Of a stretch of 32,000 bases of DNA, positions 5,467 to 31,889 are shown in pieces. Numbering within the stretch: the stretch's first letter is position 1; every line of letters starts with the position of its first letter. A model generated the notes under the pieces. That model had not been told where the DNA came from. It saw only the letters and a list, made by a program, of their open reading frames with translations, and did no database searches. This stretch comes from Trichodesmium erythraeum IMS101 (GTDB lineage Bacteria; Cyanobacteriota; Cyanobacteriia; Cyanobacteriales; Microcoleaceae). Where the stretch lies: contig NC_008312.1 in the NCBI RefSeq assembly GCF_000014265.1, positions 2,220,001 through 2,252,000 of the forward strand, written 5' to 3'. Position numbers and translations under genes: made by a program.

Positions 5467-5515
5467 TAACTTTTAACTTTTAACTTTTAACTTTTAACTT
5501 TTAACTTTTAACTTT
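5467..5515. repeat. Heptanucleotide STR (AACTTTT) x7
   Basis: Seven perfect tandem heptamers, read directly. Confidence 0.95.
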
Positions 5516-5568
5516 TGAATGTATGCCGTGAAATAGTATTATTAACTTGGGAAACTCTATAGTAAAAC

Positions 5569-12898: not shown

Positions 12899-13114
12899 GG
12901 GAATATTAAAGATAAAATTTAAACTTTAAATACAGTATTTATAAACTTGGATAGCAGTCAATGATAGTTAGTGAGTGAACAAATAAAATCCACATTTTTA
13001 AAAGTTGGTAATAGTGATTAACACATAGACAAACTTATACAAAAAAGTCGTATTAATCTTTAATTATAATAGTATCAATGATACTAGTAAAATTATCATT
13101 ATTTCAGTATATAA

Positions 13115-14302
13115 TTAATCTAATTCATCAGCGATAGCTCGAAATAAAGCCACAGTTTCTACATCATCAATAGTTTTCAAAATACTATTACTAGAACCAG
13201 TTTTTACCACAACAAAATTCTTTTCTGGATTAATATAAATGTATTGTCCCCAAGCACCAGTTGCACAATAATCACCTTTTGAACCTTCTGGAATCCACCA
13301 ATGATGTTGATAACCCCATTTCAAATATCTCTCATCTGTTGTTCCTGGTTGTAAGTGGGAACTATCAGGTATTGTTGACTCTTTTACCCAACTTTTAGGG
13401 ATGATTTGTTGTCCGTTAAAATATCCATTGTGTAAATAAACTAAACCAAATTTTGCATAATCCCTCAAAGTACAATTCATCCCACAAAAAGTTACTTCTG
13501 TCCCATAATTATCCGTTAACCAATAAGCATCTGATTCTGCTCCCATTGGTTGCCATAATTTTTTTTCTAAATAACTGACAAGATCTTGCTCAGTTACCCG
13601 CCTTAACAATAAACCTAATATTTGAGTATTCAAACTCACATATTCAAAATAATCTCCTGAGGGAAATTTAGAAGGATAGTTTAAAATCACCTTTTCTATT
13701 GGTTGCATATACAAAAATAACTTATATAAAAGTTGTTGAATATCAGAATTTTTATCTTTATAAGCTTCACTAAACTTGATACCTGAAGACATTTGTAGAA
13801 TATGTTTAATTGGTACATTGTTATATCCCGATTCTTTTAACTCTGGCATATACTTAGTAATCGGGTCGTCAAGATTTTGAATATAACCCTCATTAAGAGC
13901 AATTCCAATCAATGCAGAAATAAAGCCTTTTGCCACTGACCAAGAAGTTTTTTTGTCAAACTTTGTATAACCTTGAGAATACTTTTCATAAATAATAAAG
14001 TCATCTTTAAGTATTAAAATTCCTGTGTTACCTGTCCGTTGTAAAAAATCTACTATTGTCCGAGTTTCACCCTGAAATTGATAGGATGTATTTAAATCAC
14101 AAAAACTTTCCTGAAAAATATAGGGTTGAGTAGCACAACGGATAATTTTACTGGGAAAAACCTGATCCATGCTGCGAAAGTTTTTTACCCTTTTGTGATC
14201 ATCAAACATAGTTATTTTGGGTTCGAGATAGAAGCGCCAAATAATTAAACCAATAGCAATTAGAGGCAAAATAAAAATTAGAATAAAATTTAAAATGAGC
14301 AT
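13115..14302 (-). CDS. Serine hydrolase, beta-lactamase/transpeptidase-like family, N-terminal TM anchor
   Basis: 395 aa. Hydrophobic N-terminus. S-x-x-K motif in TSWSVAKGFISALIGIAL. Overall layout matches class-C beta-lactamase-like esterases. Confidence 0.8.
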   Translation of the reverse strand: MLILNFILIFILPLIAIGLIIWRFYLEPKITMFDDHKRVKNFRSMDQVFPSKIIRCATQPYIFQESFCDLNTSYQFQGETRTIVDFLQRTGNTGILILKDDFIIYEKYSQGYTKFDKKTSWSVAKGFISALIGIALNEGYIQNLDDPITKYMPELKESGYNNVPIKHILQMSSGIKFSEAYKDKNSDIQQLLYKLFLYMQPIEKVILNYPSKFPSGDYFEYVSLNTQILGLLLRRVTEQDLVSYLEKKLWQPMGAESDAYWLTDNYGTEVTFCGMNCTLRDYAKFGLVYLHNGYFNGQQIIPKSWVKESTIPDSSHLQPGTTDERYLKWGYQHHWWIPEGSKGDYCATGAWGQYIYINPEKNFVVVKTGSSNSILKTIDDVETVALFRAIADELD

Positions 14303-15211
14303 AGTTATTATTTAAGAGATAGATAGGGATACTGCTGAGGCAATGCTCTGTTTTTGATATTATGTATTAAAACGCTATTGATGTTACCATCTTAATAGCA
14401 ATTTCTTTAAGTATGCCTACATATTATACTCAATAATTAAATCATATAATCTTATTAATATTAAGTAACTTAGCTTAAGTTTATGAAATTGGTATTAAAT
14501 AAAATTAACTATGCTTTAACAGACACCAAATAATTAAAAACTATTTCTCATTAGATATCTCAAAAAAAAAATTAAGCTATAATTGTAATGAAAATTGTGT
14601 AAAAAATATATATCAATGAATAAGATATTAAAATAGATCAATAAGTACTCACAATAAACCCAAATATTTATTGGTATTACTAATTCTAATTTTATGTCTA
14701 TAATCTTACTAGTAACTATGGGATTAACATAGTATAATAAAGCTTTGATTAAAATAGTAAATCACTCTTTTATAACTATTTTTTCCTACATTTTTAAATA
14801 GTTTCTGGAATAAGCTTAACTCAGTTTACTATAACATAATTATCAAAAAATAAAAGGGGTTTAACTATTTCAAAAAAACTGCAAAGATAATAGAATTATC
14901 TAATTAAAATTTTGGTTGATTAGCAAATATATTCAACAGGATTTAGCTCAGGAGTATTTGGAGAAAATTTTGTAAATTTATAAACTATTCTTCTTGTGAT
15001 AAATCTTGATTAATTGTCATTAAGTATCCTCAATCTGCTTGAGACTTATGATAAGTTGCTTCATCCCAAAATATTGCTAATCTTCTACTATATCTATTGC
15101 GACTAACATGGGATTACTATAGGTAATTATAAATTATTTCTTTGCTTTCCTTTTGCTAACTAAGGAAATAATAATAAAATTTTTATTTGTAAAATACAAA
15201 AGCTTAAATTA

Positions 15212-16372
15212 ATGGTAAAAATGAAAATGAATGAAGAGGAAAAAAAACAACAAAACAAAATTCAGCGAGTGGGTGTTGTTGGTGGTGGTCAATTAGCATG
15301 GATGATGGGGGATGCAGCAAAAAAACTAGGAGTAGATTTAATTATTCAAACTCCTCATCAAGATGACCCAGCAGTATCTATTGCAAAGGATATAATTTTG
15401 GCAGAAATTGATGACCCTCAGGCAACTACTAAGTTAGCAAATATTTGTGATGTGATTACCTTTGAGAATGAGTTTATTAATATAGATGAGTTATCATATC
15501 TTGCTGAAAAGAATGTAATTTTTCGTCCTAGTTTATCTGTGTTGAAGCCGTTATTAGATAAATATGAACAGTTATGTTATTTACGATATTTGGGTTTACC
15601 TGTACCGAACTTTTGGGAGTGGGGAATAGAGATTGAGCCTTTATCTTTCCCTTTGGTATTGAAAGCTCGTCGTCATGGTTATGACGGTCAGGGTACTTTT
15701 ATTATTAAGAATATTGAGAGTTTAAAATCTCAGGGAAATTCAGAATTTTTCATACAAGAATTTATTCCTTTTGAACGAGAGGTTGCTGTTATTGCTGCTC
15801 GTGGAGTTACTGGGGAAGTTAAGGTTTATCCTGTGGTAGAAACTCAACAAGAAAACCAGGTTTGCCAGCGGGTTTTTGTACCTGATGAAAATTTAGAATT
15901 AGTAACAGAAATTGAAGAGATCGCTCAGACTCTCCTTAATAGTTTAGAAGTAGTAGGAGTATTTGGGATAGAAATGTTTATTACTAAAGACAAGAAGGTT
16001 TTAATTAATGAAATTGCTCCAAGAACTCATAACTCTGGTCATTACAGTTTGGATGCTTGTGAAGTTTCCCAGTTTGAACAACATTTACGGGCTGTTTGTG
16101 GTTTACCTTTAGGTAATACTACTCTCAAAGTAAGGAGAGCGGTGATGGTAAATTTATTGGGTTATGAATTTGGGGAAAATTACTACTTGACAAAACGGCA
16201 AATGTTAGAAAAAATTCCTCATGCTTCGGTTTGGTGGTATGGCAAAACAGAATCTCGCCCAGGACGGAAGTTAGGTCATGTGACTGTTTTGCTAGATGAG
16301 GAAAATTTTGAAATTATGGGTCGCAAGGGTGAGGCGATCGCTAATAAAATAGAGAATATCTGGTACACCTAA
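15212..16372 (+). CDS. purK: N5-carboxyaminoimidazole ribonucleotide synthase
   Basis: VGVVGGGQLAWMM, ATP-grasp LKARRHGYDGQGTF, NEIAPRTHNSGHYS, GRKLGHVT. The start could also be the ATG at 15221 or 15227. Confidence 0.9.
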   Translation: MVKMKMNEEEKKQQNKIQRVGVVGGGQLAWMMGDAAKKLGVDLIIQTPHQDDPAVSIAKDIILAEIDDPQATTKLANICDVITFENEFINIDELSYLAEKNVIFRPSLSVLKPLLDKYEQLCYLRYLGLPVPNFWEWGIEIEPLSFPLVLKARRHGYDGQGTFIIKNIESLKSQGNSEFFIQEFIPFEREVAVIAARGVTGEVKVYPVVETQQENQVCQRVFVPDENLELVTEIEEIAQTLLNSLEVVGVFGIEMFITKDKKVLINEIAPRTHNSGHYSLDACEVSQFEQHLRAVCGLPLGNTTLKVRRAVMVNLLGYEFGENYYLTKRQMLEKIPHASVWWYGKTESRPGRKLGHVTVLLDEENFEIMGRKGEAIANKIENIWYT

Positions 16373-19441: not shown

Positions 19442-19575
19442 GCAAGAAAGAAAGAAGAATAAAAATTTACTTTGGTTTTAATTCCTAAGACTAATATCAT
19501 GGCAGAGTATTGAATAAATAGAGGTTAAAAGTATTAAAAATATTGTATTATTACATCTTTTCACTTTCTTTTTTT

Positions 19576-19610
19576 AACTTTTAACTTTTAACTTTTAACT
19601 TTTAACTTTT
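19576..19610. repeat. Heptanucleotide STR (AACTTTT) x5
   Basis: Five perfect tandem heptamers directly upstream of selO. Same heptamer as at 5467-5515. Confidence 0.95.
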
Positions 19611-23280: not shown

Positions 23281-23480
23281 TAGCGATCGCCACATAAGGA
23301 CAGAATAATTATTATAATTCAGTTACCAGGGCAGCTCATAAATTTTCGCAAGAGTTCTGAGTGCTGAGTTCTCATTTCAGCTATAAGTGAGCGATCGCTA
23401 CGTAACCACAGAATAATTATTATAATTCAGCCCAGCTATCAGAGCAGCTCATAAATTTTCGCACATCTAAAAATTTGAGC
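23281..23480. repeat. Two decayed direct copies of the 3' end and downstream region of the giant gene
   Basis: GCGATCGC-ac.taa..ACAGAATAATTATTATAATTCAG...CAGCTCATAAATTTTCGCA occurs twice (cagaataatt at 23301 and 23409). It matches the true gene end cgatcgctacacaagcacagaataattgttctg (cagaataatt at 23666). Confidence 0.75.
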
Positions 23481-23488
23481 CTATTAAC

Positions 23489-23583
23489 TTCTGAGTTCTG
23501 AGTTCTGAGTTCTGAGTTCTGAGTTCTCAGTTCTGAGTTCTGAGTTCTGAGTTCTCAGTTCTCAGTTCTCAGTTCTCAGTTCA
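23489..23583. repeat. Heptanucleotide STR (TTCTGAG/TTCTCAG) x13
   Basis: 13 tandem heptamers with G/C variant order 5G, 1C, 3G, 4C, read directly. Confidence 0.95.
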
Positions 23584-23654: not shown

Positions 23655-26600
23655 CTACACAAGCACAGAATAATTGTTCTGTTGAATATCAAAATTAACA
23701 TTGTAATATGGGTCTCCCAGATCCATATCAATTTGCCATTTATCTAACAACAACATATAATCAAGCATATCATAATTTTCCTGTCTATGTTTCTCTAATT
23801 TATTATTAATTAAAACACTGCGAGGAGTAAACATAATTCGCTTACCTTTTTTCCGTAACTTCAAACACAAATCAACATCCTGATAATCACAGAAAAAATG
23901 TTCATTAAAACCACCTACCAATTCAAAATTTTCACGACTCACCATCAAACATTTTCTACTTACAGCAGACACCTCTCTTGCACAAACTAAAGAACCTGCA
24001 TAACCATCATCATTAGTAGCAAAACCTCGCATCACATAGTTAACTTTTCCCAACTTTCCTAACACAATACCTGCGTCTTCAACAGTTCCGTCAGGTAAAA
24101 CCAAAAACCCTCCCACAGCACCAATATCAGATTGTTCTGCATAATATAAAAGATGTGTTTGCCAATCTTCAACTGTAGGTTCCAAATTAGTATTCAGAAA
24201 AACAAAATATTCACCCTTAGCAGTTTTTGCAGCTAAATTATAAGCACAAGAATAATTAAATTTACCAGATAAACTTAAAACCTTCACAGCAGGATTTTGG
24301 ATTAAATTATCTGTTCCATTGCCACTAATTAAAATTACTTCATTTTCAGGATAACTAGAAACAGATAATAAATTTTCCAACCATTGATTGAGATTTTCCG
24401 AAATATTAGGAATAGCAATAATCAAACTAATTAAAGGATAATTATTTCTTGGCAAAGGATGAATATTTACCCGATGTCTACCCAAACCAGGTTCCGCCTT
24501 TGCTGCTAAACCAATTCTTTCCAAATGAGTATTAACAGCAGCCTGTTGTAATTTTTCAATATCTGCTTTAGCATCAGCATCTCCCGAAATACTTCCTTTC
24601 ACTTGTCGCCAATGATAAAGATGTTTAGAAATATGAGCAATTTTATTAGTTTGCTCGGAAACTCGTAACATAAACTCATAATCTTGTACCCCATCAAATT
24701 CACTCTTAAAACCTCCAACAGCCACAGCTATTTCTCGACGTAAACATAATAAATGACCGACATACATTACACCACGAAAATATTCGGGGGACCAGTCAGG
24801 TTTAAAGAATGGATGAGTATAATTTAACCCAGAAAAATCAATTTTATCTTCATCAGAATAAACCACATCAAATCCTTCTGCCAGTTTAGACAAACTATTT
24901 TCTAAAGCTGTCGGTGCTAGAGTATCATCATGGTCTAATAAACAAATAAATTCTCCCGTAGCCATTTTTAATGCCTTATTTGTCGCAGCACTAATACCAC
25001 CATTATCTTCTGACAATATAACTTTAATTCTCGACTCTTTTTCTGCTAAACCTGCCAGAACATTTTTAATTTCTAGCTGTTTTGATCCATCATCAACAAT
25101 ACACCATTCCCAGTCAGGAATAGATTGGTTGAGAACACTCAAAACTGTTTCTACAAACCAATCTAAAGAAGAATTCCAAGTAGGGGTAAGGATACTAATA
25201 GAAGGTTGAGAAAAATCTCTTTTTCCTTCTATTGAAATTACTAGATTAATAATTTCCCAGAACTTTTCGACTGTTACTCCTGATAAACCCAATAATTCTT
25301 GTTTTTGTTTTTTAGGGTTTCCCGGCAAATTCACATTTACTTCTGCTAGTTTTTTATCAGTAATTTTGTCTTCCAACCCAGGCAAATTATTAATTTCTGC
25401 CACTGGTTTAGCAGGAGTTTTTTCTGCTAAACTCAACAATTTTTTATCTTGCTTGACAGGAAATAGATTTTGAGTTGGAGTATTTGTATTTCTAGATTTG
25501 AACTTTTCCAAATCTGCTTGAATTTCTTGAATCTCTGTTTGTGATTTTTCCAAATCTGCCGTTATTTCTGTCAGTAACAGAGAAATAGAAGAGGTAGCTG
25601 TAGGAATTATTTCCACACTTTTTTCTGGCTTTTCAATTTTCAATTCTGACTTCTTTTCTTCCTCCTCATTTCCTGTTTTTTCTTCCTTCTGAATATCAAT
25701 TAAAGTAGCTGTAGGAATTATTTCCACAATTTCTTCTGGCTTTTCAATTTTCAATTCTGACTTCTTTTCTTCCTCCTCATTTCCTGTTTTTTCTTCCTTC
25801 TGAATATCAATTAAAGTAGCTGTAGGAATTATTTCCACAATTTCTTCTGGCTTTTCAATTTTCAATTCTAACTTCTGACTTGTAACCTCTGAATTCTTTT
25901 CTTCCTCCTCATTTCCTATTTCTTCTTCCTTCTGAATATCAAATTCTGATTTATGAGTTATGGGTTCTAACTTTCTGATTTCTGACTTCTCAAGGATCAA
26001 CATATCCAGATAACTTTTACAACCTACTCTTCCACACCAAGAACCATAAAATTTTCCCAAGACATCAAAACCAGAATTATTAACCCACTTCAACAATAAA
26101 GACTCCAGAAAACCCATACCTTTTTCTGGTGCATTTAGGTCTTTAGTAAAACCTTCTTGAAGTCGATGAATAAGAGGTTGAGAACTTTTACCTTTAGAAA
26201 TTAACTTTTCTGACTCATGGTTAACTAAGAAACAATTAAATAGCAGACGACCACCTGGTTTTACAACTCGATAAACTTCATCTAAATAATTACGAATTTC
26301 ACTCCCACCCACCTGAGTAAACCTAGAACTAATAAATACAAAATCAAAGCTTTTTGCATAATAAGGAAGTGGTAAATATGAATCTATCTGACGGAAGTTG
26401 CAATGAGGTTTTTGAGTAGTAATATTTTGTTGCGCCCAAGATATTAATTCCTCAGAAAAATCAAATCCTTCATAACGTCCTGGAGATTGCAAATAATAGG
26501 AAAGACCATAAGCTATATTCCCAATTCCACAACCAATCTCTAAAACTTCAGCAGTTGGTTGAAGAGCTACCCTTTGGATAAAATCACCTAAAAATTTAAA

Positions 26601-29600
26601 GCTTCTGGGAATAAAATTTTTTGCTCCCCCATCTATATATTTATCATTAGGAATAGGTAGGGATGGTTGAAATAATTTAAATAGAATATTTCCCTCTTTT
26701 CCTGAGAATATTGGAGTTAGAACAATCAAAGAATTTTGACAATTTTTAAGTTGTGCTTGAGAGAGAGAAATTTCCAGACGAAACCTAGAATTTCCAGCAT
26801 TATTAAGTTGAGGGCGAACTTTTGCTACATCTGGACTAGGTAAACCTAATTCTTGCACAAAAGAAGTAAATTTTTGACCGCCAATAACAACCTTAAAATC
26901 CTCTACAGAACCAAATTTAACCGAACCTACCCAACCAGATACTACTAATTTTTGATTATCAATTCCTACCTTTTCTAAATAACCAAAAGAATCAACCACT
27001 ATTGAGGTAACAAATTTATCAATTGCAGAATATTGCTCAGAATATTGTTGATTTTCAACTTCTGACTTTTGACTTTGACTAAGAGGTTGACCTGCCGTAT
27101 TAATAGCTTCAATTGATTCTATACAATTTGATTGTTTTGAAAGTATAGGATCTTCAGGAAAAGTACCTTGTTTAGGGATATCTAAAGTCTTAGATAAAAC
27201 TCCAACTTGATCATCTTTAAAGATAGGAATTAAATCAATCTGATAATTTTGGAATTGTGAAACTTGTTCTGAATTTAGAGATACTTTGATATGGAATCTA
27301 GCATGATGAGAATTATGAAGATTAGAGTGTATTTTTTTGACATCTGGACTAGGAATACCAGTCTTTAGTTCAAAACTGTTTATTTCTATAGCATCAAAAG
27401 TAACTTTAAAGTTTTCCAAAAAACCATTATTAATATCAGCAACCCAACCTTTAATAGATAATTCATTTTTATTTGTAAATTCTACTTTTTCCAGATATCC
27501 AGTTTCAGAAATAAGTTTAATATCCGGCATTTTCCGATCCGGAGATTGGTTGATAATTTCTGGCTTAGTAGCGATCGCTTCTGGAGACAAATCAAAATTT
27601 TCCTTCAGATTTTTCCGGAGCAATACTATATTTTGATTACCTCTAATTCCCCCCGGAAAATAATCAACTATTTCAAATAAATTAACCCACTTATTTCTGA
27701 CATATTCTTCTGTCTGAAGCGTAATTCCATACCAATCTGGAAAGACATTTTTATATGCTGAAGATGGCATATGTATTAATCCTAATTCTACTAATTTAGG
27801 TGCCATTTCAATAGCTTCCTTAGGACTTCTTAGTTGGCGAGTTGTTATTAGTACAACACCCCCTGGTTTAGTAATTCTTTCCAATTCTTGCAACCATTTC
27901 AACTGCATTTCCTCATTAATATCAGTAAATACTGAGATGAGATAAATAAAATCAAATTGATTATCTTCATAAGGCAAAGGTGGCAATGCTTGGTTAACAT
28001 TAAACTTAGCAAACTTAATATTTTTTTGACACCATGATATAGCTTCAGTATCAGTATCTGTAGCGTATAGAGAAGTAGAATCACTTTCTGAACTATACCA
28101 AATAATTACCCGTCCACAACCACAACCAAAATCCAATACTGATTTAAATTCACTAAAATTTTTACCAATTTTCTGGAGTGCCGTTCTTATATCTATACTT
28201 ATTTGTCTACCTACCTCTAAAAAAGCACTAATTTCAGAGTCTCCATGAACTCGCGTGACTAAATTTTTTAGTGGAAATGATATAGATTTGCCATCAGGTA
28301 AAACTAGATGAGGGGCAACATTCTTATCCTGATTAATAACTTTATAGTTAACAGCTTTATCCCGTCCATCAACAGGAGAAATTACTTTAAGAAGCGGCAA
28401 ACCTTTACGCCCCTGAAAAAAGGGAGTTAAAGCTACAACAGAGCCTATAAACTCTTCAATTTGTGTTTGAGATAAAGTTACTAATAAGTGAAAACGAGCA
28501 ACTTCAGCACTGTCTAAATGGGGAAAAGTTTTTTTAACATCAGGACTTGAGAGACCCAAAAATTGTTCAAAATTTATTAACTTTTGACCTGCCACAGTAA
28601 CTTCAAAACTATCTACAAGACCAGAATTAAATGAAGCTGCCCAACCAGACAAATTTAACTGTTGATTCTTAATTTCTGCAACTTCCAAATTTCCTACCGT
28701 TGCTACAGTTTTATATTTTTGTAGAGGTGAACTTATAAAACTTAATTTTTTCCTAGGAGTTTTTCGTAAATTCAAAGCAGCTTCATAAAGCTCCATATCT
28801 TGACTATTAGCTACTGCTAATTCATCCATTAACTTTTTATCTGACAAGACTTTCTTTTGAAACTCAATATATTCTGGATAGGGATTTCTATTTTGATAAA
28901 TCACCTCATAATCACACCATCCAAAAATACTTTTCAGTTCCAGTAAATCCTCAGCAAAATGTTCTGTAATTCCTATAAAATCAAAATAATCTAAAGACTT
29001 AGCATTTACACAGTAAGCCATCAAATTACTATTACCTTGAGCAAACTTTAATAAACTCTCTTTATTTAAATGATCTTGAGTAGGATTAGACATGTGGCGA
29101 AAACAATAATCAGAAATTAACCTGTGTATCGGTTCTCTTAACCATGTAATTCTGTAAGCATTAGGAAATAATTTGTCATACTTACCTGCCCGAAAATGAC
29201 CCTCAATAACTTTAGTTTGCCAATGAATAGTAGCCGGCATATTATCTTCAAACATATTAGTTTTATCAGTAAGAACTCCTTGAGTTCCATAAACCTGTAA
29301 TAAAACCTGTCTAAAAGCAGTTCCAGCAGCTTTTGGTACATGAACAGAAATCAATTCTACTTGGGGAGTAGTAGTTGGTAAATCATTAGTTTCTGATGTT
29401 TTTAATAAAGAAGATAAAGCAGGAGTAACACCATTTAATAGAGGTTCTCCTTCACGATTTTTTACTAAAGGAATTAAAATAATCAGAGAATCTTTAAATT
29501 CTTGTTGCTGCTGTTTATTCATTGGCAACCTAATAATAAACCGAGCATTATCAGCAGCAGAAATATTAGGATGTGCTTTTTTTACTCCAGGACTAGGAAT

Positions 29601-29795
29601 ACCTTGAGTTAATCTAAATTCTGTTAATTGTTTACTGTCAAATAAAACCTTAAAATTAGTTACCATTTCAGATTCAAATGACAGAACCCATCCACTTAAA
29701 CAAACAGTTTCATTTTCTATTGCTAGTTGGTCTAAAAATCCAGTAGTTGCTGCTAGTTGTTGAGGTTGTTTATCTGCCATTTCAAATTTTTCCAT
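23655..29795 (-). CDS. Giant multidomain glycan-assembly/modification enzyme: X-sulfotransferase-X-SAM MTase-X-X-SAM MTase-repeat/coiled-coil-GT2-GT2
   Basis: Uninterrupted 2046-aa ORF. Approximate domain map in nt:
- X1 29433-29741.
- Sulfotransferase 28770-29360 (HVPKAAGTAF PAPS-type motif).
- X2 28385-28705.
- MTase-1 27610-28300 (VLDFGCGCGRV).
- X3 27195-27510.
- X4 26670-26995.
- MTase-2 25990-26660 (VLEIGCGIGNI).
- E/K repeats and coiled coil 25480-25935.
- GT2-1 24590-25205 (ISILTPTWN, IVDDGS, LLDHDD).
- GT2-2 23800-24435 (ISLIIAIPN...). Confidence 0.9.
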   Translation of the reverse strand: MEKFEMADKQPQQLAATTGFLDQLAIENETVCLSGWVLSFESEMVTNFKVLFDSKQLTEFRLTQGIPSPGVKKAHPNISAADNARFIIRLPMNKQQQQEFKDSLIILIPLVKNREGEPLLNGVTPALSSLLKTSETNDLPTTTPQVELISVHVPKAAGTAFRQVLLQVYGTQGVLTDKTNMFEDNMPATIHWQTKVIEGHFRAGKYDKLFPNAYRITWLREPIHRLISDYCFRHMSNPTQDHLNKESLLKFAQGNSNLMAYCVNAKSLDYFDFIGITEHFAEDLLELKSIFGWCDYEVIYQNRNPYPEYIEFQKKVLSDKKLMDELAVANSQDMELYEAALNLRKTPRKKLSFISSPLQKYKTVATVGNLEVAEIKNQQLNLSGWAASFNSGLVDSFEVTVAGQKLINFEQFLGLSSPDVKKTFPHLDSAEVARFHLLVTLSQTQIEEFIGSVVALTPFFQGRKGLPLLKVISPVDGRDKAVNYKVINQDKNVAPHLVLPDGKSISFPLKNLVTRVHGDSEISAFLEVGRQISIDIRTALQKIGKNFSEFKSVLDFGCGCGRVIIWYSSESDSTSLYATDTDTEAISWCQKNIKFAKFNVNQALPPLPYEDNQFDFIYLISVFTDINEEMQLKWLQELERITKPGGVVLITTRQLRSPKEAIEMAPKLVELGLIHMPSSAYKNVFPDWYGITLQTEEYVRNKWVNLFEIVDYFPGGIRGNQNIVLLRKNLKENFDLSPEAIATKPEIINQSPDRKMPDIKLISETGYLEKVEFTNKNELSIKGWVADINNGFLENFKVTFDAIEINSFELKTGIPSPDVKKIHSNLHNSHHARFHIKVSLNSEQVSQFQNYQIDLIPIFKDDQVGVLSKTLDIPKQGTFPEDPILSKQSNCIESIEAINTAGQPLSQSQKSEVENQQYSEQYSAIDKFVTSIVVDSFGYLEKVGIDNQKLVVSGWVGSVKFGSVEDFKVVIGGQKFTSFVQELGLPSPDVAKVRPQLNNAGNSRFRLEISLSQAQLKNCQNSLIVLTPIFSGKEGNILFKLFQPSLPIPNDKYIDGGAKNFIPRSFKFLGDFIQRVALQPTAEVLEIGCGIGNIAYGLSYYLQSPGRYEGFDFSEELISWAQQNITTQKPHCNFRQIDSYLPLPYYAKSFDFVFISSRFTQVGGSEIRNYLDEVYRVVKPGGRLLFNCFLVNHESEKLISKGKSSQPLIHRLQEGFTKDLNAPEKGMGFLESLLLKWVNNSGFDVLGKFYGSWCGRVGCKSYLDMLILEKSEIRKLEPITHKSEFDIQKEEEIGNEEEEKNSEVTSQKLELKIEKPEEIVEIIPTATLIDIQKEEKTGNEEEEKKSELKIEKPEEIVEIIPTATLIDIQKEEKTGNEEEEKKSELKIEKPEKSVEIIPTATSSISLLLTEITADLEKSQTEIQEIQADLEKFKSRNTNTPTQNLFPVKQDKKLLSLAEKTPAKPVAEINNLPGLEDKITDKKLAEVNVNLPGNPKKQKQELLGLSGVTVEKFWEIINLVISIEGKRDFSQPSISILTPTWNSSLDWFVETVLSVLNQSIPDWEWCIVDDGSKQLEIKNVLAGLAEKESRIKVILSEDNGGISAATNKALKMATGEFICLLDHDDTLAPTALENSLSKLAEGFDVVYSDEDKIDFSGLNYTHPFFKPDWSPEYFRGVMYVGHLLCLRREIAVAVGGFKSEFDGVQDYEFMLRVSEQTNKIAHISKHLYHWRQVKGSISGDADAKADIEKLQQAAVNTHLERIGLAAKAEPGLGRHRVNIHPLPRNNYPLISLIIAIPNISENLNQWLENLLSVSSYPENEVILISGNGTDNLIQNPAVKVLSLSGKFNYSCAYNLAAKTAKGEYFVFLNTNLEPTVEDWQTHLLYYAEQSDIGAVGGFLVLPDGTVEDAGIVLGKLGKVNYVMRGFATNDDGYAGSLVCAREVSAVSRKCLMVSRENFELVGGFNEHFFCDYQDVDLCLKLRKKGKRIMFTPRSVLINNKLEKHRQENYDMLDYMLLLDKWQIDMDLGDPYYNVNFDIQQNNYSVLV
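25594..25926 (-). repeat. In-frame 111-bp tandem repeat x3 (37-aa E/K-rich unit) inside the giant CDS
   Basis: gtagctgtaggaattatttccaca recurs at 25594, 25705 and 25816 (period 111 = 37 codons). The unit encodes ELKIEKPEEIVEIIPTATLIDIQKEEKTGNEEEEKKS. Two copies are near-identical and the third is diverged. Confidence 0.95.
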
Positions 29796-30044: not shown

Positions 30045-31889
30045 TTAAAAACTTTTTTCCAATACTAACAAATCTTCTTTAATAGATGAAGTCCGACCAC
30101 ACCAAGAACCATAAGATTTTTCTAGAACATTAAAGCCTCGTTCTTCTATCCATTGTAATATTAGATTTTCCCTAAAACCAATCCCTTTCTCTGGCAGATT
30201 AATATCTATAGTAAAACCATCCTCTATTTCATAAATAAGCTGTTGAGAACTTTTACCTTTAGTAATCAACTCTTCTGATTCTGAATTAATTAAAAAGCAA
30301 ATTAATAAACATCTCCCTCCCGGTTGTAAAACTCTATATATTTCATCAAGAAAATGACGAACTACAGAACTTTGTAAATGAATAAATAAACGGGAAATAC
30401 AAACACAATTAACACTTGAATTAGGATAAGGAAAAATAAAATCATTGGCAGATATTTTACCTGTAGAATTGTAGATACAGTGATAAATATTGTACCAGTT
30501 AAAATTAAAATTCGGCTTACGAGTCGTAATTTCTTGTTTTATCAAGGAAATAAAATCTTCCGTCATATCAAAACCTTGATAACGACCAGAAGGTTGTAAA
30601 TAATGAACTAAAGTATAAGCTACAGTACCAATATTGCAACCAATATCAAGAATATAGTCTGTTGGTTGTAAACCTAATCTTTGAATTAAACTTCCTAATA
30701 ACTTGAAGGAATTATTAATAAATTGATTACTAATATCTTTCCCAACTATTTCTAGATATTCCCTATCTGGCAGTGGTAAAAGAGGTGTTAATGCTGTTAA
30801 TATAACTATACCCTCACCCCTATTAAACAGAGGAATCAAACAAATTAATGAATGTTTTATTTGATTAATTTGTTCTTGATTTAAAAGAACTTTTATGCGG
30901 AATCTAGCATTACCTGCACCAGATAAACTAGGGTGAATTTTTTCCACATCTGGACTAGGTATATTCAGAGTTTGTTCAAAGAAACTAAAATCTTGATTCC
31001 CAACAGAAACTTTAAATCCTTGCACCATACCAGCATCTAAGGAGGCAACCCAACCAGATAAATATAAAACTTGATTTTTAAGTATTACCCGATCGATAGA
31101 ACCCCAAGTAAGTAAAGGATTAATTTTTCGTTTCTTGCCAATAATATCTTTCTTTTCAGAGTTATTTTGAGTATAGTATTGTATCTCTGATGTTTTTTTC
31201 CGCCGCTCCCGTAAACTTAATGCTTCTTGATAAATTTCTATATCTTCGTGATTTATGGCTGATATTTTACCGACTATTTCTTGGTTAGATAATACTTCTT
31301 TAATTAATAATTTATATTCTAAATAAGGATTAGTATTTGGAGCTTCTAATTCATACTCTGACCAATCTAACATTACCTTAAGTTCATATAAATCCTCACT
31401 AAAAAATTCTTGGATACCCACAAAATAAAAATATTTTAGTTGCTCGTTTTGCAGAAAATTTAATTTGATTAGATTCTGCATTTCTGGTTTTTCAGCAAAT
31501 TCTATAAAACTCAAATTAGTATCTTTGGAATTTCCTAAATATTCTTGATCATTTGCTAGTAATATTTGCCAGCTCTTCCAAAAAAAGTAAAGAGAAACTA
31601 ACCGCTTGATCGGATTCCTCAGCCAAATAATTTTTTTAGCTCCCGGAAATTTTTGATTATATTTTGGAGCAGGAAAATGACCATGAATTATTTTGACTTC
31701 TGGCTTTTGTTTGGTTAACATCCGATTCCGAATCTGACCTTTGTGAGGGTAGTCAAAGAAAATTTCTTCTGAGCTATATACCTGTCTAATAACACCCTTA
31801 AATGCAGTACCAGCAGTTCTTGGTATATGAATTGAAATAATTTCTATATTAGTACGATCAGGTTTTATAGTTTGATTTCTTTGGGTCAT
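30045..31889 (-). CDS. Sulfotransferase-X-SAM methyltransferase, paralogue of parts of the giant protein
   Basis: 614 aa. IHIPRTAGTAF (about 31801-31830). X module LYLSGWVAS...PSPDVEKIHPSL...ARFRIKV (about 30795-31095). MTase ILDIGCNIGTVAY (about 30618-30653). The C-terminal half aligns with X4 plus MTase-2 of the giant protein. Confidence 0.9.
   Translation of the reverse strand: MTQRNQTIKPDRTNIEIISIHIPRTAGTAFKGVIRQVYSSEEIFFDYPHKGQIRNRMLTKQKPEVKIIHGHFPAPKYNQKFPGAKKIIWLRNPIKRLVSLYFFWKSWQILLANDQEYLGNSKDTNLSFIEFAEKPEMQNLIKLNFLQNEQLKYFYFVGIQEFFSEDLYELKVMLDWSEYELEAPNTNPYLEYKLLIKEVLSNQEIVGKISAINHEDIEIYQEALSLRERRKKTSEIQYYTQNNSEKKDIIGKKRKINPLLTWGSIDRVILKNQVLYLSGWVASLDAGMVQGFKVSVGNQDFSFFEQTLNIPSPDVEKIHPSLSGAGNARFRIKVLLNQEQINQIKHSLICLIPLFNRGEGIVILTALTPLLPLPDREYLEIVGKDISNQFINNSFKLLGSLIQRLGLQPTDYILDIGCNIGTVAYTLVHYLQPSGRYQGFDMTEDFISLIKQEITTRKPNFNFNWYNIYHCIYNSTGKISANDFIFPYPNSSVNCVCISRLFIHLQSSVVRHFLDEIYRVLQPGGRCLLICFLINSESEELITKGKSSQQLIYEIEDGFTIDINLPEKGIGFRENLILQWIEERGFNVLEKSYGSWCGRTSSIKEDLLVLEKSF

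Follow-up and report, generated by a model that had tools for sequence, protein, structure and literature searches.

Introduction

In the systems built on WbbB (Klebsiella pneumoniae O12/Raoultella terrigena) and on ORF6 of K. pneumoniae O7, the length of the glycan chain is set by a spacer (PMC11231755, PMC5082667). In WbbB, a chain modifier, the Kdo transferase that serves as terminator, is fused to a two-glycosyltransferase (GT) polymerase through an extended coiled coil (PMC11231755). O7 ORF6 combines a methyltransferase-kinase terminator, an Ig-like carbohydrate-binding module (CBM), a coiled coil and two GT2 modules, and cyanobacterial orthologues of its terminator part have been reported (PMC11231755). 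WbdD of Escherichia coli O9a is a methyltransferase-containing modifier that is kept apart from a separate polymerase by a trimeric coiled coil of ~200 Å (~20 nm) with a membrane-binding end, and engineered insertions into or truncations of this spacer shift the modal chain length (PMC5082667). Here we analysed a tandem repeat in the spacer of a 2046-amino acid (aa) protein with a comparable order of modules, encoded by Trichodesmium erythraeum IMS101 in a stretch of 32,000 nucleotides (nt) of contig NC_008312.1 (positions 2,220,001 to 2,252,000), hereafter called the window; all coordinates given for this genome are those of the window. An original prediction made from this DNA had proposed that the repeat may belong to a molecular ruler, in which case changes in its copy number, by slippage or recombination, would tune the chain length of a glycan between strains or cells. 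We found an in-frame minisatellite, and we consider it probable, though by no means certain, that this minisatellite resides in a tolerant, disordered tether of a soluble giant glycan-assembly enzyme.

Compared with O7 ORF6, the Trichodesmium protein likewise carries N-terminal modifiers, Ig-like structure, a helical spacer element and two C-terminal GT2 domains in one polypeptide. Unlike ORF6, it has four Ig-like domains, a sulfotransferase and two methyltransferases, with no kinase domain detected in its 2046 aa, and its helix spans only 33-34 aa and is flanked by long low-complexity linkers with tandem repeats. It resembles WbbB in the fusion of a chain modifier to a two-GT polymerase through a spacer, and WbdD in the separation of a methyltransferase-containing modifier from a polymerase; its repeat, however, is not the coiled coil of WbbB, and its spacer, unlike that of WbdD, is mostly predicted to be disordered and leads into a fused polymerase. 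We regard the protein as an uncharacterised cyanobacterial representative of the modifier-spacer-polymerase fusions that is equipped with a sulfotransferase and four Ig-like domains.

Results

An in-frame minisatellite between the modifying and polymerase halves

Tandem Repeats Finder (TRF) detected an array with a period of 111, 2.5 copies, 98% matches and a score of 545 at 25594-25876, within the 2046-aa open reading frame (ORF) that occupies 23655-29795 on the minus strand according to the ORF list, translation and Pfam. When TRF was combined with codon phasing, the array was resolved into three head-to-tail units of 132, 111 and 111 nt, 354 nt in total (25587-25940, minus strand, aa 1286-1403). 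Unit 1 (25809-25940, aa 1286-1329, 44 aa), unit 2 (25698-25808, aa 1330-1366, 37 aa) and unit 3 (25587-25697, aa 1367-1403, 37 aa) encode DIQKEEEIGNEEEEKNSEVTSQKLELKIEKPEEIVEIIPTATLI, DIQKEEKTGNEEEEKKSELKIEKPEEIVEIIPTATLI and DIQKEEKTGNEEEEKKSELKIEKPEKSVEIIPTATSS, respectively. The greater length of unit 1 is due to a 21-nt (7-codon) insertion at ~25867-25887, which keeps the frame. Without this insertion, unit 1 is identical to unit 2 at 108 of 111 nt. Units 2 and 3 are identical at 104 of 111 nt; of their seven differences, five cluster within the final 7 nt, where the 3' end of unit 3 grades into conserved unique sequence at the array boundary. Three in-frame tandem units of 111 bp, two of them almost identical, had been predicted; their number, frame and near-identity were borne out, but the unit placed at 25816 is 132 nt long and the gene lies on the minus strand. 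A feature on the plus strand was rejected, as that strand holds no ORF of at least 80 aa at the array.

Head-to-tail units of 94-97% identity, lengths that are multiples of three (111, 132 and 21 nt) and an uninterrupted ORF characterise the array as a coding-region minisatellite. Phase variation (on/off switching) was rejected because the unit and insert lengths are all divisible by three. Heptanucleotide repeats are a known class in cyanobacteria, and the 21-nt insertion and the adjoining degenerate TTCTGAT run (6.6 copies, 73% matches by TRF; 25944-25990, minus strand), which encodes the start of the linker, EKSEIRKLEPITHKSEF, are heptamer-like and resemble triple heptamers. The 111-nt unit itself is neither a multiple of 7 nor built of heptamers, and the array was thus not assigned to the short tandemly repeated repetitive (STRR) type.

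The domain order of the protein is Ig-like, sulfotransferase, Ig-like, methyltransferase, Ig-like, Ig-like, methyltransferase, spacer, GT2 and GT2. In the Pfam assignment, the array sits between the second methyltransferase, which is S-adenosylmethionine (SAM)-dependent and is the last folded domain ahead of the spacer (PF13649/PF08241; aa 1082-1190; 26226-26552, minus strand), and the first GT2 domain (PF00535, E 2e-33; aa 1534-1662; 24810-25196, minus strand). The second GT2-like domain (aa ~1836-1989; 23829-24290, minus strand) corresponds to a second PF00535 stretch, with weaker matches to PF13712 (Glyco_tranf_2_5) and PF02709 (Glyco_transf_7C). Among solved structures, the best match of the first GT2 was the chondroitin polymerase KfoC of E. 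coli K4 (2z86/2z87, E 6e-25), which also has two GT2 modules but has neither the modifying half nor a repeat-bearing spacer. The Pfam domains, the KfoC match and the conserved GT2-GT2 pair place the polymerising modules on the near side of the spacer, as in the ruler systems, and they confirm the predicted location of the repeat between a modification half and a polymerase half.

The array lacks features of a coiled coil

The spacer, which follows the second methyltransferase and precedes the GT2-GT2 module, comprises ~260 aa. Within it, the array is composed of 29% Glu, 15% Lys and 14% Ile, has a net charge of -19 and contains 6 Pro and 3 Gly in 118 aa, which corresponds to 2 Pro and 1 Gly per unit. 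Coiled-coil propensity was examined with a crude heptad scan, in which hydrophobicity at a/d positions minus that of the rest was scored in 28-residue windows without Pro or Gly. The scan was positive only at ~aa 1399-1438 of the spacer, and positive stretches were confined to 32-40 residues, both here and in the seven orthologues scanned. The array was negative: Pro or Gly is present in every 28-residue window, heptad amphipathicity is low, and the unit length of 37 aa is not divisible by seven.

For aa 1240-2046, the AlphaFold model based on 12 aligned sequences was poor overall (mean pLDDT 43) but still informative; it showed no secondary structure over aa 1240-1401, the region containing the array (pLDDT ~20-25, ~22 at the repeat). 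The sole coil-like element of the spacer is a conserved helix at aa 1402-1435, SSISLLLTEITADLEKSQTEIQEIQADLEKFKSR (25491-25592, minus strand; model residues 163-196, pLDDT ~57-64). The Pro/Lys/Thr-rich linker that follows it (aa 1436-1508; 25272-25490, minus strand) was predicted to be disordered (pLDDT ~23-33). The short duplicated motif that had been predicted to follow the array was recovered as ADLEK...ADLEK, ADLEKSQTEIQEIQADLEKFK, at aa 1413-1433 (25497-25559). When the 223-aa spacer was searched by itself as a protein, no match was obtained at E<=1e-5, and since its own protein was also missed, low-complexity filtering is the probable reason. As judged from AlphaFold and composition, the absence of predicted structure, the biased charge and the unconserved length and sequence are those of a disordered interdomain linker. 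These results suggest that the array is probably a strongly acidic, Pro/Gly-punctuated segment of a disordered tether.

These properties bear directly on the proposal that the repeat is part of a molecular ruler, in which each 37-aa unit would move the sulfotransferase and methyltransferases away from GT2 and copy-number changes would tune chain length. The layout on which this proposal was based holds in its order of modules, with modification domains ahead of a spacer and two GT2 domains, which matches WbbB and O7 ORF6, but the repeat itself is not a coiled coil, as indicated by its Pro and Gly residues, its unit length, the negative heptad scan and the missing helix in AlphaFold. An extended coiled coil of the ruler systems (~100 residues or more) was detected by neither AlphaFold, in a low-confidence model, nor the heptad scan. 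The only conserved helix, of ~34 residues, would measure ~5 nm if straight (estimated at 1.5 Å per residue), against the ~20 nm of WbdD (PMC5082667), and a minimum distance cannot be imposed by a flexible tether. We therefore regard the ruler explanation of the repeat as unlikely, although it keeps some plausibility among the alternatives.

Linkers of orthologues vary freely around a helix of constant length

What the spacers of Okeania, Dapis and other Microcoleaceae conserve is a single segment of 33 aa, (S)SISPLLTEIMADLEKSQTEIQEIQADLEKFKS, whose length was 33 aa in all 13 orthologues or alleles (13/13) with both ends located. The linkers around it differ widely across the orthologues, with 54-183 aa before the helix, 43-75 aa after it and 23-187 aa before GT2. 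The same linkers contain unrelated in-frame tandem repeats in other genera and in uncultured relatives, with units of 12, 16, 18, 24, 34 and 38 aa, and repeat content clearly differs between genera. At the orthologous spot in Okeania, a 114-nt unit is present in 2 versus 3.9 copies between species. A 48-nt unit built on AGAAGGA precedes GT2 in 7 versus 10 copies between species. In addition, tandem repeats of 18 to 24 aa occupy the post-helix linker of some Okeania and Dapis genomes, and in Okeania repeats were also found in linkers of the N-terminal half. Repeat sites lie at 13984-14426 and 14795-15290 of locus L012 and at 13046-13269 and 13629-13974 of L014, with further sites in L006, L009 and L018. 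Heptamer-built repeats, in which heptamers such as AGAAGGA give EGRRKKEEGRR-type peptides, are common among the orthologue repeats.

Homology between the 37-aa unit of Trichodesmium and the 38-aa unit of Okeania was considered but not supported, as the protein score was reached in 62 of 500 shuffles. A shared origin at the DNA level likewise found no support; the score was reached in 200 of 500 codon shuffles.

No other part of the protein varies as much in length as the spacer, where repeats arose independently in several genera; this would fit a ruler of adjustable length. On the other hand, the repeats also populate linkers that have nothing to do with the separation of terminator and polymerase. 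Under a further explanation, the linker repeats might be selected length-variation loci: changes in copy number would alter reach or coupling between the sulfating and methylating half and the polymerase half, and strains or filaments of colony-forming marine cyanobacteria would thereby come to differ in how long a sulfated, methylated glycan is or how it is decorated. This would have evolved at the same linker independently in Trichodesmium, Okeania and Dapis. We consider this explanation unlikely, and slightly less credible than the ruler.

Copy number within Trichodesmium and behaviour in assemblies

Trichodesmium assemblies contained 1, 2, 3 and at least 4 units. Three units are present in the window and, base for base, in two other assemblies (L001 and L002), which share an identical 514-nt three-unit stretch. 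Two units were found in a Tara Oceans contig (L141), which has 99.5-99.8% nt identity over the gene, and in L003 and L004, which are two samples of one series. A single unit was found in one metagenome-assembled genome (MAG). In thiebautii-like MAGs, the contigs end inside the array after at least 4 units; their units share the lineage-specific residues TEKIVEIIPTATSSIV, which suggests concerted evolution of the units in these assemblies.

The possibility that the array, or its three-copy state, is an artefact of assembly had been raised together with the prediction. At least 22 Logan runs and several MAGs yielded contigs that break off within unit 1. The 2-unit alleles equal the expected product of an assembly collapse: those of L003 and L004 are joined at different points and elsewhere appear the same as the window allele, which suggests collapse in these samples, and by our own reckoning from the unit differences the exact repeat common to both unit junctions is ~133 nt long, exceeding the k=127 of the Tara assembly. 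The array itself withstands this explanation. The exact 2046-aa protein is encoded on a 7.75-Mb contig, L001 and L002 reproduce the three-unit state, and the units differ at fixed positions and by the 21-nt insertion, which is not expected from an expansion artefact. We consider an artefactual array highly improbable. Comparison across assemblies, as the prediction had called for, gave differing apparent copy numbers, but the 2-unit alleles are possibly short-read collapses, and within-species copy-number variation is a plausible possibility.

The array also splits the gene in drafts. Three Logan contigs (L142-L144) and five proteins (P0021, P0025, P0027, P0029 and P0030) end in or at the array, and T. 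erythraeum 21-75 has two gene fragments, ending just before and just after it. Because short-read contigs end in or at the array, draft genomes systematically carry the gene in pieces or in shortened form. When metagenomes were searched with a 17-mer of the repeat, single matches were obtained among those listed; no fetched locus encoded the protein, the matches are attributable to chance only, and they added no further alleles.

Coiled coils in relatives of the polymerase module

At E<=1e-30, the GT2-GT2 module is shared by 11,184 cluster representatives, in which its usual place is the C-terminus. An N-terminal methyltransferase, as in O7 ORF6, was found in 5 of 8 GT2-GT2 relatives scanned. 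Among 61 relatives with an N-terminal extension, 28 had coil-like runs of at least 28 aa, and in 4 runs of 60-108 aa lay directly before the module. Both features are points in favour of a ruler. Because relatives of the polymerase module carry long coiled coils, ruler function exists somewhere in the wider family. In one relative, P0136, whose layout is methyltransferase-GT2-coil-GT2-GT2, a 35-aa (five-heptad) tandem duplication, QIISQRDKETSELKSQLLEVTSQAQKLDSDIAEMQ x2, lies at ~aa 465-545 in a clear coiled-coil spacer. P0136 illustrates how a repeat of the ruler type looks, and a ruler built of repeats is more credible there than in the 37-aa, Pro-containing array of Trichodesmium.

Remaining domains of the host protein

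The sulfotransferase (PF03567, E 2.1e-7, above the curated cut-off) spans aa 143-313 (28857-29369) and the first methyltransferase (PF13489), likewise SAM-dependent, aa 536-657 (27825-28190), both on the minus strand. Internal repeats revealed the four Ig-like copies, also on the minus strand, at aa 15-122 (29430-29753), aa 364-471 (28383-28706), aa 763-870 (27186-27509) and aa 934-1041 (26673-26996). The copies, of an Ig-like beta-sandwich domain of ~108 aa, share the motifs LSGW, PSPDVKK and ARF and are placed ahead of the catalytic domains of the N-terminal half. One copy was modelled by AlphaFold as a confident beta-sandwich (pLDDT 93.6). The Ig-like domains matched no Pfam family and gave no specific match in the Protein Data Bank (PDB), and their assignment as Wzt-type carbohydrate-binding modules was rejected, as Foldseek against the PDB gave generic Ig folds only (E>=3.8e-3, TM<=0.55). 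By analogy with the single Ig-like domain of O7 ORF6, for which such a role was suggested (PMC11231755), they may bind glycan.

In comparison with solved structures, the N-terminal 1400 aa matched generic methyltransferases only, and a WbbB entry was absent among the matches of the protein. No NCBIfam family was assigned to the 2046-aa protein at curated cut-off, and no transmembrane-like segment was found (top Kyte-Doolittle 19-residue mean 1.21).

Gene neighbourhood and other repeats in the window

The big gene closes a conserved cluster. Its upstream neighbour codes for a 614-aa protein with sulfotransferase and methyltransferase domains (30045-31889, minus strand; Pfam), an order conserved in related contigs, and further upstream in related contigs (L005, L014, L017, L018 and L141) there are more sulfotransferase, methyltransferase and GT genes. 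Several proteins of the cluster have two or three such domains. Trichodesmium is noted for abundant sulfotransferases (PMC8205485). The gene content points to a heavily sulfated and methylated glycan as the cluster product. The sulfotransferase and methyltransferase domains of the 2046-aa protein itself may either cap the chain end or decorate along the chain. The abundance of such domains across the clusters leans towards modification all along the chain and away from one cap at its end, which speaks against a terminator-based ruler. The wzm/wzt ABC-transporter genes, another point of difference from O7 ORF6 and a further argument against the ruler, were not found in the flanking DNA examined, which comprised ~23 kb downstream in the window and, for loci of Trichodesmium, Okeania and more distant relatives, 10 kb upstream; the genome may encode them at another place.

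Other tandem repeats were observed in the window. A heptanucleotide array, TTCTGAG x13.4, lies at 23489-23582, ~70 nt past the stop codon of the big gene. On either side of it, at 23450 and 23582, stands a copy of an imperfect 38-bp direct repeat, which starts CATAAATTTTC. Other heptamer arrays are TAACTTT x7.1 at 5467-5516 and TTTTAAC x5.6 at 19572-19610. A 290-bp tandem repeat of 3.6 copies with 97% matches occupies 352-1399; no ORF of at least 80 aa lies over it, and it is apparently intergenic. Non-coding tandem arrays with high expression have been described in T. erythraeum (PMC4143802).

Discussion

We favour the explanation that the array is an in-frame minisatellite in a tolerant disordered tether because the linkers vary freely, repeats populate every linker in the family and the repeat has no coiled-coil features. 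The tether would link an N-terminal decorating or terminating half, with four Ig-like domains, one sulfotransferase and two methyltransferases, to a C-terminal polymerase of two GT2 modules. The array most likely originated by duplication of the sequence just upstream of the short conserved helix, and its units, with their identity of 94-97%, probably let it grow and shrink by unequal recombination or by slippage during replication. The reading frame survives every copy-number change because 111 and 21 are multiples of three, and the linker would tolerate the changes in length since its role would be to connect rather than to fold. The invariant amphipathic helix of 33-34 aa would then be the sole constrained element of the spacer, and we infer that it forms a short oligomerisation coil. 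Gain or loss of a unit would alter the reach of a flexible tether, not the length of a rigid rod. Because the tether is flexible, the product would be affected, if at all, softly, through the coupling between modifier and polymerase, with no set minimum chain length. Such a softer effect on module coupling is possible, whereas it is unlikely that the repeat acts on glycan chain length as a rigid ruler.

Tandem repeats with similar properties are known from other settings. In-frame tandem repeats commonly create disordered regions, for example in Borg elements (PMC9879509), and the Trichodesmium array shares with them a unit divisible by three, near-identical units, a K/E-rich polyampholyte composition and predicted disorder. 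It differs from repeat-made disordered regions and from heptanucleotide repeats in that its host is a cytoplasmic enzyme rather than a surface protein and in that its 111-nt unit does not consist of heptamers. Periscope proteins are bacterial surface proteins of variable length (PMC8201768); they too have near-identical tandem units, variable in number by intragenic recombination, which alters the reach of a terminal functional domain, but their units are folded and form rigid surface rods, in contrast to a 37-aa unit, predicted to be unfolded, inside a cytoplasmic enzyme.

Several observations weigh against a tolerant tether as the explanation. Given the poor AlphaFold model, short helices such as NEEEEKKSELKIEK may exist within the array. 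The unit is rich in Ile (14%), which is high for a pure spacer, and it copies EIIPTAT(SS), a conserved segment ahead of the helix in every orthologue, so that a binding motif may be part of the unit. If so, the repeated motif (for example, the Ile-rich EIVEIIPTATLIDI) would dock partner enzymes of the cluster, the export machinery or the membrane, and copy number would set valency instead of distance. The cluster encodes several separate sulfotransferase, methyltransferase and glycosyltransferase proteins, all of which have to work on the same polymer. Orthologues without the repeat, or with unrelated repeats, nevertheless hold a single copy of the motif, the AlphaFold model shows neither strand nor helix in the unit, and no partner is known, so that we see a repeated docking site as a long shot, below the ruler and the selected-variation explanation. 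Independent expansion of repeats at the same linker in several genera could also reflect selection for variable length instead of mere tolerance, the long coiled coils of GT2-GT2 relatives keep ruler function within the wider family, and the apparent copy-number variation within Trichodesmium may not be real polymorphism, the 2-unit alleles being just what a collapse would yield and many short-read contigs breaking inside the array.

The practical consequences concern both strain typing and annotation: the array locus should be a good long-read or PCR strain marker, and the gene has to be expected broken or collapsed in routine short-read assemblies. If spacers of this kind do influence the product, the coiled-coil ruler concept would be extended to flexible, repeat-built spacers, and, if length variation is selected, the linker repeats would represent a natural, mutation-driven 'soft' counterpart of the engineered WbdD/WbbB ruler experiments. 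A suggested role of the sulfated surface polymers of Trichodesmium is to assist in the binding of metals, iron among them (PMC8205485). If linker length alters the product, the array would provide a natural genetic dial for the size or decoration of a glycan in this ecologically important nitrogen fixer.

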